Part shown: one piece after another, positions 9,201 to 15,200 of the stretch
How positions within the stretch are numbered: position 1 is the first letter of the stretch
Layout of the letters: each line of letters starts with the position of its first letter
Assembly: GCF_017348835.2 (NCBI RefSeq)
Contig: NZ_CP071375.1
Strand: one strand, 5' to 3'
DNA from: Escherichia coli
Lineage (GTDB): Bacteria > Pseudomonadota > Gammaproteobacteria > Enterobacterales > Enterobacteriaceae
Length of the DNA: 64,000 bases
Made by a program: the position numbers

Positions 9201-12200
9201 CGAATGGCAACACAAAGCCGATGTTTGTTGGTCAGGGCGATCAGATATTCATGAACGACGTGTTCCTGAAACGCCTGACGGCTCCGACCATTACCAGTGG
9301 CGGTAATCCTCCGGCATTTTCCCTGACACCGGACGGGCGGCTGACGGCGAAAAATGCCGATATCAGCGGTAACGTGAATGCGAACTCCGGGGCGCTCAAC
9401 AACGTCACGATTAACGAGAACTGTCGGGTTCTGGGAAAATTGTCCGCCAACCAGATTGAAGGCGATCTCGTTAAAACAGTGGGCAAAGCTTTCCCCCGGG
9501 ACTCCCGTGCACCGGAACGGTGGCCATCAGGGACCATCACCGTCAGGGTTTATGACGATCAGCCGTTTGACCGGCAGATTGTTATTCCGGCGGTGGCATT
9601 CAGCGGCGCTAAACATGAGCGGGAGAATAACGATATTTATTCGTCATGCCGCCTGATAGTACGGAAAAACGGTGCTGAAATTTATAACCGTACCGCGCTG
9701 GATAATACGCTGATTTACAGTGGTGTTATTGATATGCCAGCTGGTCGCGGCCACATGACGCTGGAGTTTTCGGTGTCATCATGGCTGGTAAATGACTGGT
9801 ATCCCACAGCAAGTATCAGCGATTTGCTGGTTGTGGTGATGAAGAAAGCCACCGCAGGCATCAGTATCAGCTGAATTTTATAACCCATATACGGGCGCCA
9901 GAAATGGCGCCTTTTTTATTGCAGAAAAGCGAGAGGTAATTATGCGTAAAGTTTGTGCAGCCATTTTGTCCGCAGCCATCTGTCTGGCCGTATCCGGTGC
10001 GCCTGCATGGGCATCTGAGCAGCAGGCCACGCTGAGCGCAGGGTATCTTCATGCCCGTACGAACGCTTCCGGCAGCGATAATCTGAACGGGATTAACGTG
10101 AAATACCGTTATGAGTTTACGGACACGCTGGGGCTGATTACGTCATTCAGTTATGCCAACGCTGAAGATGAGCAAAAAACGCATTACAGCGATACCCGCT
10201 GGCATGAGGATTCCGTGCGTAATCGCTGGTTCAGCGTGATGGCGGGGCCGTCTGTGCGCGTGAATGAATGGTTCAGCGCGTATGCGATGGCGGGTATGGC
10301 TTACAGCCGTGTGTCGACTTTCTCCGGGGATTATCTCCGCGTAACTGACAACAAGGGGAAAAAGCACGATGTGCTGACCGGAAGTGATGACGGTCGCCAC
10401 AGCAACACGTCTCTGGCGTGGGGAGCTGGCGTGCAGTTTAACCCGACCGAATCCGTGGCCATTGATGTCGCTTATGAAGGCTCCGGCAGTGGTGACTGGC
10501 GCACTGACGGGTTCATCGTGGGTGTTGGTTATAAATTCTGATTAGCCAGGTAACACAGTGTTATGACAGCCCGCCGGTTCAGGCGGGCTTTTTTGTGGGG
10601 TGAATATGGCAGTAAAAATTTCAGGTGTACTGAAAGACGGCACAGGAAAACCGGTACAGAACTGCACAATCCAGCTGAAAGCAAAACGTAACAGTACCAC
10701 GGTGGTGGTGAACACGCTGGCATCTGAAAATCCGGATGAAAAGGGGATAGTACAGCTCAGCAGTGCGACCAACAGCACTTCCGAGTCACTGGCGGCAACG
10801 CCAAAAGCCGTTAAGGCCGCGTATGACCTGGCTAACGGGAAATACACCGCACAGGATGCAACGACAGCACAGAAAGGGATAATCCAGCTAAGCAGCGCGA
10901 CCAACAGCACGTCTGAAACGCTGGCGGCAACGCCAAAGGCAGTAAAAGCAGCCAATGACAATGCTGAGAAACGTCTGCAGAAAGATCAGAACGGTGCGGA
11001 TATCCCTGGCAAAGACACCTTTACGAAAAATATTGGTGCCTGCCGTGCCTTCGGTGGGTCAGTAAGCACAACAACAGGAAACTGGACGACTGCACAGTTT
11101 ATCGAGTGGCTGGATTCTCAGGGAGCATTTAACCATCCATACTGGATGTGCAAGGGTTCCTGGTCTTATGGCAATAATAAAATCATTACTGATACTGGCT
11201 GCGGTAATATTCATCTCGCCGGAGCTGTCATTGAAGTAATGGGGATAAAGTCAGCGATGACGATCCGCATTACCACTCCGACCACATCCAGCGGTGGCGG
11301 AACAACCAACGCCCAGTTTACCTATATTAATCACGGAACAGATTATTCACCTGGCTGGCGAAGGGACTATAACTCCAGAAATAAGCCAACGGCATCAGAG
11401 ATCGGGGCGCTACCGTCAGGTGGAACAGCAGTATCATCAGTTAATCTGGCTTCAAAAGGTCGGGTAGCCGCGCTGACAGACAATACGCAGGGGGCAGCAG
11501 GTCTTGAGTTATACGAGGTGTATAACAACGGATATCCAACAGCGTATGGAAATATCATTCACCTGAAAGGGATGACAGCCGTTGGCGAAGGTGAGTTACT
11601 CATCGGCTGGAGTGGTACAAGTGGTGCTCATGCTCCGGCATTTATTCGTTCACGACGGGATACGACCGACGCAAACTGGTCGCCGTGGGCGCAGCTTTAC
11701 ACCTCGGCTCATCCTCCTGCAGAGTTTTATCCAGTCGGTGCACCAATCCCGTGGCCATCAGATACCGTTCCGTCTGGTTATGCCCTGATGCAGGGGCAGA
11801 CTTTTGACAAATCTGCTTACCCGAAACTTGCAGCCGCTTATCCGTCAGGCGTGATCCCTGATATGCGTGGCTGGACGATTAAGGGCAAGCCCGCCAGTGG
11901 TCGTGCCGTATTGTCTCAGGAACAGGATGGCATTAAATCGCATACCCACAGCGCCAGCGCATCCAGTACGGATTTGGGGACGAAAACCACATCGTCGTTT
12001 GATTACAGCACTAAATCCACGAATAACACTGGTGCGCATACCCATAGTTTAAGTGGCAGCACGAATGCAGCTGGTAATCACAGCCATAGAGATGGCCGTC
12101 GATTTAACCCCAGTGTTTTTAAAGATACTTATCAATATGGTTATACAAGCTCAGGTCAAAATACTTGGGGTGTACAAGGCTCAGTAGGTATGTCTACGGG

Positions 12201-15200
12201 GTGGTTAGCTAATACCAGTACAGATGGTAATCATAGCCACTCACTGTCCGGCACAGCAGCATCTGCAGGTGCACACGCGCATACTGTCGGTATTGGTGCT
12301 CATACGCACTCCGTTGCGATTGGTTCACATGGACACACCATCACCGTTAACGCTGCTGGTAACGCGGAAAACACCGTCAAAAACATCGCATTTAACTATA
12401 TTGTGAGGCTTGCATAATGGCATTCAGAATGAGTGAACAACCACGGACCATAAAAATTTATAATCTGCTGGCCGGAACTAATGAATTTATTGGTGAAGGT
12501 GACGCATATATTCCGCCTCATACAGGTCTGCCAGCAAACAGTACCGATATTGCACCGCCAGATATTCCGGCTGGCTTTGTGGCTGTTTTCAACAGTGATG
12601 AGGCATCGTGGCATCTCGTTGAAGATCATCGGGGAAAAACCGTCTATGACGTGGCTTCCGGCGACGCGTTATTTATTTCTGAACTTGGCTCGTTACCGGA
12701 AAATGTCACCTGGTTATCGCCGGAAGGGGAATATCAGAAGTGGAACGGCACAGCCTGGGTGAAGGATACGGAAGCAGAAAAACTGTTCCGGATCCGGGAG
12801 GCGGAAGAAACAAAAAACAACCTGATGCAGGTAGCCAGTGAGCATATTGCGCCACTTCAGGATGCTGCAGATCTGGAAATCGCAACGGAGGAAGAAAACT
12901 CGTTGCTGGAAGCCTGGAAAAAGTATCGGGTGTTGCTGAACCGTGTTAATACAACAACTGCACCTGATATTGAGTGGCCTACGAACCCTGTCAGGGAGTA
13001 ATCATTGGGATTATGCCGCAGAAACGTTGTATGCAATAACGTTTTGCGGTTGGCTGGTGAACTTCCGATAGTGCGGGTGTTGAATGATTTCCAGCTGCTA
13101 CCGATTTTACATATTTTTGCCTGAGAGGATTTGAACCGCCTCCACAGACTCTACATCACAGATAACCACTGTCACGAGGACTGTTAGTGCTGTGAGTTCA
13201 ACGGGGCGATGTACGCTACCTTTAATCAAGAGGGAGAGGTACGTTGCTAAGATGAGTTTATATTCATCAACTAAGTGCAGATCAGCGAATAACTAAAACT
13301 TGGCTGTCTGAACCGCCCCGGAAATCCTGGAGACTAAACTCCCTGAGAAAGAGGTAAACAGGATGACTAAAAATACTCGTTTTTCCCCCGAAGTCCGTCA
13401 GCGGGCGATTCGTATGGTTCTGGAAAGTCAGGATGAATATGACTCACAGTGGGCGGCAATTTGTTCCATTGCCCCAAAGATTGGCTGTACGCCGGAGACT
13501 CTGCGTGTCTGGGTTCGCCAGCATGAGCGGGATACCGGGAGTGGTGATGGTGGACTCACCACCGCTGAACGTCAGCGTCTGAAAGAGCTGGAACGTGAAA
13601 ATCGTGAACTGCGCCGCAGTAACGATATCCTTCGCCAGGCTTCCGCTTATTTTGCGAAGGCGGAGTTCGACCGCCTCTGGAAAAAATAATGCCACTGCTG
13701 GATAAGCTGCGTGAGCAGTACGGGGTCGGACCGGTATGCAGCGAACTGCATATTGCCCCGTCAACGTATTACCATTGTCAGCAACAGCGACATCATCCGG
13801 ATAAACGCAGTGCCCGTGCGCAGCACGATGACTGGCTGAAGAAAGAGATACAGCGCGTATACGATGAAAATCACCAGGTATACGGTGTGCGTAAAGTCTG
13901 GCGTCAGTTGTTACGGGAAGGTATCAGAGTGGCCAGATGCACTGTGGCACGTCTCATGGCAGTTATGGGACTTGCCGGTGTTCTCCGGGGTAAAAAGGTC
14001 CGCACTACCGTCAGCCGGAAAGCCGTTGCCGCATGCGACCGCGTAAACCGTCAGTTCGTGGCAGAACGTCCAGACCAGTTGTGGGTGGCTGATTTTACCT
14101 GGGTAAGCACATGGCAGGGCTTCGTTTATGTGGCGTTCATCATTGATGTGTTCGCCGGATACATCGTGGGATGGCAGGTCTCATCATCCATGGAAACAAC
14201 ATTCGTGCTGGATGCACTGGAGCAGGCGTTGTGGGCCCGTCGGCCGTCCGGCACAATCCATCACAGTGATAAAGGTTCTCAGTATGTATCGCTGGCCTAC
14301 ACGCAGCGGCTTAAGGAAGCCGGATTACTGGCATCAACAGGGAGTACTGGCGACTCGTATGACAACGCGATGGCGGAGAGCATCAATGGTCTTTACAAAG
14401 CGGAGGTAATACACCGTAAGAGCTGGAAAAACCGGACAGAAGTGGAACTGGCCACACTAACGTGGGTGGACTGGTATAACAATCGACGATTGCTGGAAAG
14501 GCTGGGCCATATTCCTCCGGCAGAAGCAGAAAAAGCTTATTATGCTTCCATCGGAAATAATGATCTGGCAGCCTGAGTTCACAGATAAAACACTCTCCAG
14601 GAAACCCGGGGCGGTTCATCTCCCGTCGCGCTATGCACGCCGACCTCCACAAAATGCCCGGCAAAGGTCGACTGCTGGTACTCCTTGCTCAGTGTTCCGA
14701 ATTCAATGCTCTCTTCCGCTGTCAGTCTGCCGCCTGCGGTGGCCTCATGTAGCGTGGCGCTTCGGGTACCGTTGGTAATCTTGCCGTCGGCAAACTGCGA
14801 CTGCTCAGGATCAAACCCGACTGCCGAGGCAATCATTTCGCGAAGCTTCACACAGGCGGCGTAAACGCCGGAGGTGGAGGTATTCGCGCCCCATTGTCCA
14901 CCAGAACCCGCAGAAACCGGGAAACTGGAATCGCCGAGGTGAACCGCAACCTGCTCCAGCGGTACGCCAAGCATTTCCGCTGCCGTCTGGGCCAGAATGG
15001 TGTAGCTGCCGGTGCCAATGTCGGTCATGTCCGTTTCCACGGTAACGGTGCCGTTTGGTTCGAGGTGAACCCGAGCCCCCGATTTTTCCAGCAGATTATT
15101 GCGAAAGCCCGCCGCGACGCCGTGGCCGACTAGCCACTCTCCGTCGCGTACCTGTCCAGGTGTGGCGTTGCGCTGCTTCCAGCCAAATTTATCCGCTCCG

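Follow-up and report, generated by a model that had tools for sequence, protein, structure and literature searches.

The tail-fibre gene described here is a lambda-type side tail fibre gene (stf) of an ordinary kind that has suffered a private in-frame deletion; it lies in a decayed prophage remnant and is very probably itself a product of that decay. It was analysed in a stretch of 64,000 nucleotides of Escherichia coli DNA (the window). Every module of the gene has already been described; the tandem repeat and the His-rich tip are well known fibre modules. The coordinates of the features are given in Table 1.

Table 1. Features of the stf locus in the window (aa, residues of the 603-residue product unless another gene is named)
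Feature	Position	Strand	Details
J', tail-tip protein J fragment lacking the N-terminal part	8273-9874	+	Internal 657-nt deletion at 9180-9186
lom (Ail/Lom outer-membrane protein)	9942-10541	+	PF06316, E 8e-125; upstream neighbour as in lambda
Intrinsic-terminator-like hairpin and T run	10568-10597	+	Between lom and stf; 8-bp stem, 7 GC pairs
stf deletion allele	10606-12417	+	Continuous ORF from the ATG at 10606; 603 aa and a stop codon
Remnant of N-terminal collar/tail-attachment domain (PfN, PF08400)	10606-10740	+	aa 1-45, strands 1-3 only
Deletion junction GAA/AAG GGG	10738-10746	+	Break between 10740 and 10741; codon 45 joined to codon 466
Phage_fiber_2 (Pf2) repeat copy 1	10741-10827	+	Pfam and repeat search
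Phage_fiber_2 (Pf2) repeat copy 2	10873-10959	+	Pfam and repeat search
Globular domain 1, related to variable part of Mu S'	10960-11514	+	aa 119-303; strong similarity aa 119-262
Globular domain 2	11422-11724	+	aa ~273-373; recurs in other phage tail-fibre families
T4 gp37-type receptor-binding needle	11725-12414	+	aa 374-603; PDB 2xgf residues 28-242, E 2.3e-83
Phage tail collar domain PF07484	11737-11880	+	aa 378-425, E 2.9e-12; inside gp37 match
Span of seven HxH motifs	11941-12336	+	Putative Fe(II)-binding positions in the trimer
Variable tip cassette between HxH 3 and HxH 4	12088-12231	+	aa 495-542; putative receptor-contact subdomain
tfa, tail fibre assembly chaperone	12417-13001	+	194 aa; PF02413 Caudo_TAP, E 8.8e-43

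The deletion and the truncated attachment domain

The genes are arranged in the order J'-lom-stf-tfa, with stf after J/lom and directly before tfa, the start of which overlaps the stop codon of stf. By alignment, the start at 10606 is the same as in lambda and full-length Stf. A GTG at 10600 would lengthen the product by two residues. The preliminary description had begun the feature at 10741, which is where the sequence resumes after the deletion and not the start of the gene; it was right that this side tail fibre gene is shorter than lambda stf (603 versus 774 residues for intact lambda Stf, KT232076.1). No NCBIfam model matched the protein or its middle region. The exact 603-residue protein is found in a public record, EFC6684800.1, deposited as 'short-chain dehydrogenase'.

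The deletion was defined by DNA and protein alignment using the 1023-residue Stf of phage PhiR68_2 and of strain GZ04-0086 (WP_147577611.1) as reference. Exactly 1260 nt (420 codons, codons 46-465) are missing in a single in-frame event, the 603-residue protein corresponding to residues 1-45 plus 466-1023 of either reference. The junction DNA reads GATGAA/AAGGGG at 10740/10741 and carries a 2-nt microhomology (AA). Nothing was inserted at the junction, which represents a single clean loss; the earlier proposal of a shaft 'lost or exchanged' therefore holds for loss, which extends to half of the attachment domain, and fails for exchange. Compared with two full-length relatives, the retained 603 codons show 14-17 synonymous and 5-7 non-synonymous differences, and the distal receptor-binding part is about 99% identical to that of the full-length alleles.

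The product is a truncated derivative of a lambda-type Stf. The complete collar domain comprises residues 1-94 in lambda, and 45 residues are kept here; of the 134 positions of the PF08400 profile, the match covers 1-51, and that to PDB entry 9e7m (lambda StfN chain) is limited to residues 1-50 of 94. In Ur-lambda Stf, residues 1-94 form a six-stranded sheet and a helix, and twelve StfN copies make up a collar at the gpV/gpM junction in which the beta4-beta5 loop makes contacts (PMC12617516). An AlphaFold2 model of the full-length N-domain (single sequence, pLDDT 56) placed beta4 at 48-54 and beta5 at 57-65, past the breakpoint; the model was used for strand order only, and this order agrees with the published description. 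The C-terminal half of the collar domain is lost and with it, as judged from the model and the published description, strands 4-6 and the helix. The Ala/Ser-rich trimeric coiled-coil shaft (PCoil) is wholly absent. We also considered that the short form might be ancestral and the long forms derived by insertion. This was rejected, as the short form cuts a structurally defined domain; the long form is moreover the one carried by plaque-forming phages.

The preliminary description had attributed the short gene to receptor-specificity shuffling, i.e. to a functional fibre with its shaft exchanged or trimmed during host-range evolution. Genes of the stf type are indeed strongly mosaic, with lambda, Mu S/S' and T4 gp37 modules combined here, and the deletion is in frame. 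Shaft length also varies naturally: PCoils differ from one another in length by multiples of seven (PMC3368898), and lambda is 105 residues (15 heptads) short of the GZ04 type. This explanation is nevertheless very unlikely. The lost part was not replaced by foreign sequence, the receptor-binding half is nearly unchanged, the deletion begins within the attachment domain and not in the coiled coil, and the junction occurs in a single clone and in none of 50,697 phage records. The gutted host prophage, moreover, offers no tail for the fibre.

Repeats, globular domains and needle

The tandem repeat of the preliminary description was recovered as two Pf2 repeats. The DNA repeat search gave two 87-nt tandem copies, 80% identical, with a start-to-start distance of 132 nt (44 residues), and the corresponding 27-residue protein units differ at two positions. 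Pfam PF03406 (Phage_fiber_2) matched two stretches of the gene (E 9.4e-38). Within each 44-residue period a core is conserved, and the roughly 15 residues after it are unrelated. Tandem Repeats Finder reported no repeat over 10500-12500, because there are just two copies separated by a 45-nt unrelated spacer and the score is too low. In the full-length relatives, the repeats lie at residues 466-553 of 1023 by alignment, and their position near the N-terminus, as originally reported, is true of the 603-residue allele as a result of the deletion only. One relative, P0009, carries a single hybrid Pf2 copy. Alignment against lambda stf and other fibre genes, which had been proposed as a check, bore out both the repeat and the deletion.

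The repeats are followed by two globular domains. The first matches chain A of PDB entry 8ju3 over residues 178-362 (E 6.8e-70), as well as PHROG tail-fibre families. The second is matched at residues 273-367 by phrog_3299, phrog_22609 and phrog_37852; a PDB sequence search with residues 265-375 alone found nothing, even at E values of up to 10. Treatment of both domains as 'knobs' of one fold was dropped, since BLASTP gave no significant similarity between them. Single-sequence AlphaFold2 prediction of residues 119-380 yielded no usable model (mean pLDDT 29.7). The Mu-S'-like knob region, which in every allele of this type takes the place of lambda residues 395-529, is one of two places where exchange of specificity is seen in the family; the other is the tip cassette described below.

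The His-rich C-terminus noted previously was confirmed as seven HxH motifs, at residues 446, 478, 492, 543, 557, 566 and 575 (span 446-577; nucleotides 11941-49, 12037-45, 12079-87, 12232-40, 12274-82, 12301-09 and 12328-36). They account for 14 of the 20 His residues of the protein. When the protein was shuffled 20,000 times, the mean was 0.63 HxH motifs and the maximum five. All seven align with HxH motifs of T4 gp37 (2xgf), in register with the needle behind the collar domain, and a chaperone gene of the gp38/Tfa class is adjacent (tfa). As gp37 carries seven Fe ions (PMC11705849, citing Bartual 2010), the motifs here are, by homology, putative Fe(II) sites in which six His residues from the three chains of an interwoven trimer would hold each ion octahedrally. 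Relatives that are otherwise nearly identical, and lambda too, diverge strongly only in the cassette between HxH 3 and HxH 4, whose counterpart in gp37 is the tip subdomain set into the stem (PMC6957217). To judge from the aligned sequences, it is in this cassette that specificity varies in this Stf family.

Taken together, the modules suggest how the full-length fibre of 1023 residues would be built. It would be a trimer, with the N-terminal collar domain clamping to the tail tube/tip junction, followed by the Ala/Ser-rich coiled-coil shaft, the two Pf2 repeats and the two globular domains, the first of them Mu S'-related. The collar domain and the gp37-type needle would come next, the seven HxH motifs of the three chains coordinating seven iron ions, and the variable tip cassette would touch the receptor. 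In the present lineage, half of the attachment domain was then lost together with the shaft, very probably by one illegitimate recombination at the 2-nt microhomology. The resulting Stf could presumably no longer mount on a virion. If made with Tfa, its distal part would still be expected to fold, as an anchorless iron-containing trimer.

Prophage context and distribution of the junction

What remains of a lambdoid prophage sits at tRNA-Thr (thrW); it is heavily deleted, with stf and tfa at its right end. In the annotation of the complete chromosome of strain PE164, which carries the same remnant, int and yfdT/R/Q/P-like genes are directly followed by the J fragment and then by lom, stf, tfa and an IS3-family element, and genes for head, tail tube, lysis and Q are absent. 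J has lost its N-terminal part and, in addition, 657 nt from its interior. The locus appears from its sequence to be transcriptionally orphaned, because the late genes are gone, stf is preceded by a terminator-like hairpin and a search of 9800-13400 gave no promoter-like site on the plus strand.

Functional phages (PhiR68_2, mEp460) have full-length 1023-residue alleles, as do over 600 genomes of E. coli. Of 5,426 complete E. coli genomes, one, that of PE164, has the junction. The exact 603-residue protein is encoded in the same context on three contigs of clonal draft assemblies, one of these contigs being common to five samples. One of the draft contigs matches the window with 100% identity, and the window differs structurally from PE164; at least three assemblies therefore have the junction. 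Among 50,697 phage records, no contiguous short form was found, and all full-coverage matches are in two pieces, spanning 2.4-3.1 kb. No strain with the remnant and an undeleted stf was found among the complete genomes. PE164 is the only complete genome with any of the three deletion junctions of the remnant.

A technical explanation would be collapse of the Ala/Ser-rich shaft during assembly. The shaft is a repetitive low-complexity sequence, and PGAP/RefSeq annotates the intact stf ORF as a pseudogene fragment and a 435-residue 'phage tail protein' CDS. Against this, the left breakpoint lies in unique N-domain sequence and not in the repetitive shaft, and the window, the complete PE164 chromosome and independent drafts all show the same junction. 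These assemblies differ from each other by an inversion and an IS1 insertion. An artefact is almost certainly not the explanation.

Two observations speak against decay. The deletion is in frame and leaves an ORF of 603 codons without stop or frameshift, as would also fit a selected short form, and tfa is intact. However, a deletion is in frame by chance in about one case in three, and the clone is too young for further damage.

The same two intact genes could instead point to exaptation, with the anchorless distal fibre and Tfa expressed by the bacterium as a soluble receptor-binding protein to mask a surface receptor, or with the allele kept as a donor cassette for lambdoid phages, resident or incoming. 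N-terminally truncated gp37 needles do trimerize when co-expressed with chaperones (PMC6957217), and eight further stf-like places besides this allele (nine in all in the PE164 record) are available as recombination partners. This reading is very improbable, given the upstream terminator, the failure to find a promoter-like site and a protein that begins with the Stf N-terminus; moreover, retention of the allele in what is just one young clone is uninformative on selection, and recombination upstream of the junction would transfer the defect. A specific form of it, in which a chaperone-assisted iron-containing trimer made by the bacterium occupies the cell's own receptor and slows phages with the same tip, or in which the distal fibre is donated to co-resident prophages, is slightly less probable still. 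For a gene disabled by decay, a role as donor of distal fibre modules in recombination would be the most that could be expected.

The allele matters little in itself, as an example of remnant decay by short-microhomology deletions. It illustrates how a deletion can disguise a well known fibre as a new architecture, with repeats that seem N-terminal. Its practical value lies in annotation, one record being misnamed and an intact ORF being split. For host-range work on this family, the informative part is the cassette between HxH 3 and HxH 4, not the shaft.

Comparison with known fibres

The 1023-residue Stf of PhiR68_2, PhiR42_1, mEp460_ev081 and the GZ04-0086 prophage is the parent allele; it is collinear with the window allele, with about 99% identity over 603 residues, and differs by the codons that are absent here.

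The region of Mu S (5yvq) matched by the Pf2 repeats is 97-175, and residues 119-303 match Mu S' (8ju3) with E 7e-70, whereas the N-terminal baseplate-attachment and C-terminal receptor-binding parts of Mu S/S' are not shared. A literature search did not find the primary paper on the Mu S' structure 8JU3; the search found the code in one relevant paper, in a figure legend (PMC11821841).

T4 gp37 (2xgf) shares the collar domain, the needle, the seven HxH motifs and an 11-residue C-terminal end. Its tip subdomain between HxH 3 and HxH 4 is longer and unrelated, and the receptor can therefore not be inferred from T4; the remainder of the stf protein is not gp37-like.

Lambda and Ur-lambda Stf/Tfa share the position (J, lom, stf, tfa) with a Caudo_TAP Tfa directly downstream, as well as the Pf2 motif. 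The first 45 residues are 91% identical (lambda Stf 1-47 aligned), and the C-terminal 230 residues are 71% identical to lambda Stf 530-774, with the HxH needle included and the last 30 residues identical. By contrast, the collar domain here lacks lambda residues 46-94, the coiled-coil shaft is absent altogether, and the lambda hinge and distal coiled coil (residues 395-529) give way to the two globular domains. Lambda has one Pf2 repeat, eight HxH motifs and two SFDYGTK units, compared with two, seven and one in the present allele, and a different tip cassette.

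The stf gene and its deletion

The side tail fibre gene stf was found to have an N-terminus, read from the ATG at 10606, that aligns with that of lambda Stf ([26 protein letters not shown]); the start at 10741 given in the preliminary description is corrected accordingly. As that description had stated, the gene is shorter than its lambda counterpart (603 aa versus 774 aa for intact lambda Stf). RefSeq/PGAP does not show the continuous ORF as one gene: 10606-11079 is annotated as a 'tail fiber protein' pseudogene and 11110-12417 as a 'phage tail protein' of 435 aa. The 39-codon ORF after tfa (13005-13124) is labelled 'capsid protein' in the public annotation. 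The features are collected in the table.

Features of the stf region (nucleotide positions, or residues of the window Stf where marked aa)
Feature	Position	Strand	Description
J'	8273-9874	+	tail-tip protein J fragment; J homology starts only at 8273
lom	9942-10541		upstream of stf; PF06316
Terminator-like hairpin and T run	10568-10597		between lom and stf
stf	10606-12417	+	one continuous ORF, 603 aa; contains the whole segment described earlier
Pf2 repeat, two copies	10741-10827, 10873-10959		87 nt each
Globular domain 1	aa 119-303		matches S' part of Mu fibre 8ju3, E 7e-70
Globular domain 2	aa ~273-373		recurs in several PHROG tail-fibre families
Needle	aa 374-603		aligns with T4 gp37 receptor-binding tip 2xgf, E 2e-83
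Phage tail collar domain	aa 378-425		PF07484
Variable tip cassette	12088-12231 (aa 495-542)		between HxH 3 and 4
tfa	12417-13001		downstream of stf, start overlaps stf stop codon; PF02413 Caudo_TAP
IS3-family element, two copies	13307-14618, 49759-51074		1.3 kb; presumably IS629/IS1203-like
paoC	14579-16420	-	truncated by the IS3-family copy at 13307-14618

The nearest relatives are the 1023-aa Stf proteins of the plaque-forming lambdoid phages PhiR68_2, PhiR42_1, PhiR26_1 and mEp460_ev081; this form also occurs in many E. coli prophages, and at least 80% of a lom-stf-tfa query was covered by one place in 627 genomes. Protein alignment showed that the window protein consists of residues 1-45 and 466-1023 of the 1023-aa Stf, and in DNA alignment exactly 1260 nt separate the parental sides in both full-length relatives used (GZ04-0086 and PhiR68_2). 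GATGAA is joined to AAGGGG at 10740/10741, where the parental sides have just the dinucleotide AA in common. The gene was thus shortened by one in-frame illegitimate-recombination deletion of 420 codons with no insert. The 603 retained codons differ from the two relatives by 14-17 synonymous and 5-7 non-synonymous changes; the window stf derives by deletion from a common, functional allele.

The junction and the surrounding prophage remnant

A 201 nt junction probe was run against 5,426 complete E. coli genomes and was contiguous in one, PE164 (pig, China; NZ_CP114128.1), while half of it alone matched in 4,086 others. Among 50,697 phage records, none had the short stf form in one piece. Public data contain the identical 603-aa protein under the accession EFC6684800.1, mis-named 'short-chain dehydrogenase'; it was found on three contigs (the contig shown is common to five samples), where the gene context is again phoE-proBA-int ... 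J'-lom-stf-tfa, and one of these contigs is 100% identical to the window over 12.8 kb. An IS3-to-IS3 inversion and an inserted IS1 distinguish the window from PE164, and since the junction is shared despite these differences, several distinct assemblies carry it. This, with the left break point lying in unique sequence, excludes an assembly collapse that made stf look short. The allele occurs in a single clone.

The PE164 IS1 (21855-22622 of its locus L006; 768 nt, 9-nt junction overlap; window ~41641-41649) is absent from the window, which must thus stem from a close relative of PE164 and not from the PE164 assembly itself. In the PE164 RefSeq chromosome (locus L001) the prfH' ... tfa segment between two inverted IS3-family copies is inverted relative to the window, where the K-12-like order thrW-prophage-paoC is kept. 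According to the PE164 annotation only, L006 23874-28127 (~window 36000-40500) holds an fdeC gene, for an inverse autotransporter adhesin, that is interrupted by a stop, and several frameshifted neighbours (hyxA, an adhesin gene and ykgL).

As annotated in PE164, the tRNA-Thr element comprises an integrase, an HTH gene and yfdT/R/Q/P-like early genes, followed directly by the J fragment, lom, stf, tfa and the IS3-family element truncating paoC; genes for head, tail tube, lysis and late regulation are absent from it. The start of J' adjoins a yfdP-like early gene on the opposite strand (7817-8197), and J' has an internal in-frame deletion of 657 nt between 7-nt direct repeats GGATTGC (9180-9186). 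Both J' junctions are contiguous in PE164 alone among the 5,426 genomes; the gutted, defective prophage has thus undergone at least three deletions, that in stf included.

The bisected attachment domain

Matches to PF08400 (prophage tail fibre N-terminal domain) were limited to profile positions 1-51 of 134, and those to the 94-residue Stf N-terminal domain of the Ur-lambda tail (PDB 9e7m/9mgh) to residues 1-50. In Ur-lambda, residues 1-94 form a six-strand antiparallel sheet and a helix; twelve copies make a collar round the gpV/gpM junction with contacts via the beta4-beta5 loop, and a linker then leads into a coiled coil (residues 102-393) (PMC12617516). AlphaFold2, run on the single sequence of the full-length N-domain, gave a low-confidence model (pLDDT 56) with strands at 2-10, 21-28, 31-36, 48-54, 57-65 and 74-85 and a helix at 86-90, in the published order, which places the breakpoint 45/46 between strands 3 and 4. 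On this model the deletion takes away strands 4-6 with the contact loop and the helix; the linker and the entire Ala/Ser-rich shaft are lost as well. With residues 46-465 of the 1023-aa allele missing, the tail-attachment domain is bisected and the central shaft, lost or exchanged according to the preliminary description, is gone.

The product could presumably no longer be fitted to a tail, and stf is probably silent; a simple scan of 9800-13400 detected no sigma-70-like site on the plus strand. N-terminally truncated gp37 needles trimerise with their chaperones (PMC6957217) and, by analogy, the distal part of Stf would still do so if made with Tfa. That the gene yields an expressed anchorless receptor-binding protein, or serves as a donor cassette, retains a small probability: tfa is intact and the deletion is in frame, which has a chance of about 1 in 3.

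Retained modules and comparison with known tail fibres

Judged by sequence matches to solved structures and Pfam, the retained part is a series of described modules. The 87-nt Pf2 copies (identity 80%, spacing 132 nt; repeat search) encode KGI(V/I)[11 protein letters not shown](S/T)[11 protein letters not shown]; the Pfam family PF03406, 'Phage tail fibre repeat', matches both significantly (E 9.4e-38), and the pair also matches residues 97-175 of Mu S (5yvq). Tandem Repeats Finder did not detect the pair, because in each 44-aa period only the core is conserved and the residues after it are unrelated. The tandem repeat reported earlier is real; its nearness to the N-terminus holds for the short gene, but only as a consequence of the deletion. 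Lambda Stf has one Pf2 repeat, whereas the window Stf has two. In the relative P0009 the region equivalent to window 10741-11004 holds a single hybrid repeat (first half of copy 1, tail of copy 2) and is shorter by exactly one period; the tandem repeat therefore recombines unequally and varies in copy number. For globular domain 2, a PDB search by sequence gave no solved relative, and its predicted structure reached a pLDDT of only 29.7.

Of the protein's 20 His, 14 lie within the C-terminal 160 residues, as do seven HxH motifs (shuffled sequences: mean 0.63 motifs, maximum 5; 20,000 trials). Repeat, HxH-rich C-terminus and short length were thus all correctly described. Each of the seven lines up with an HxH motif of T4 gp37. 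There, HxH pairs contributed by the three chains bind seven iron ions (Bartual et al., 2010, cited in PMC11705849), and the iron-binding histidines are essential (PMC6957217). The gp37 'tip subdomain', a stem insertion bearing the LPS/OmpC contacts (PMC6957217), has its counterpart between HxH 3 and 4, the only part of the protein to differ sharply among the window Stf, lambda and the otherwise near-identical relatives P0002 and P0007. In proteins otherwise >95% identical this stretch is swapped wholesale (P0002, P0007, lambda) between conserved, HxH-containing flanks. Specificity exchange in these proteins would, on this comparison, take place in this cassette; the receptor of the window allele cannot be inferred from T4 or lambda. 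Receptor-specificity shuffling had been proposed as the meaning of the shortening. This reading finds no support: nothing was inserted, the receptor-binding end is unchanged, and the allele is found in one clone and in a defective element.

PfN, Pf2, the coiled coil, the Mu-like domain, the collar, the gp37-type iron needle and Tfa are already described, as are tail fibre gene mosaicism and prophage decay by deletion; the allele itself is already in databases under a wrong name. Lambda Stf lacks 105 coiled-coil residues (exactly 15 heptads) of the GZ04-type protein, but its own N-domain is complete. This difference between intact alleles (columns 304-408 of their alignment) fits the rule that PCoil lengths differ by multiples of seven (PMC3368898). 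Such natural variation in shaft length looks different from the window deletion.
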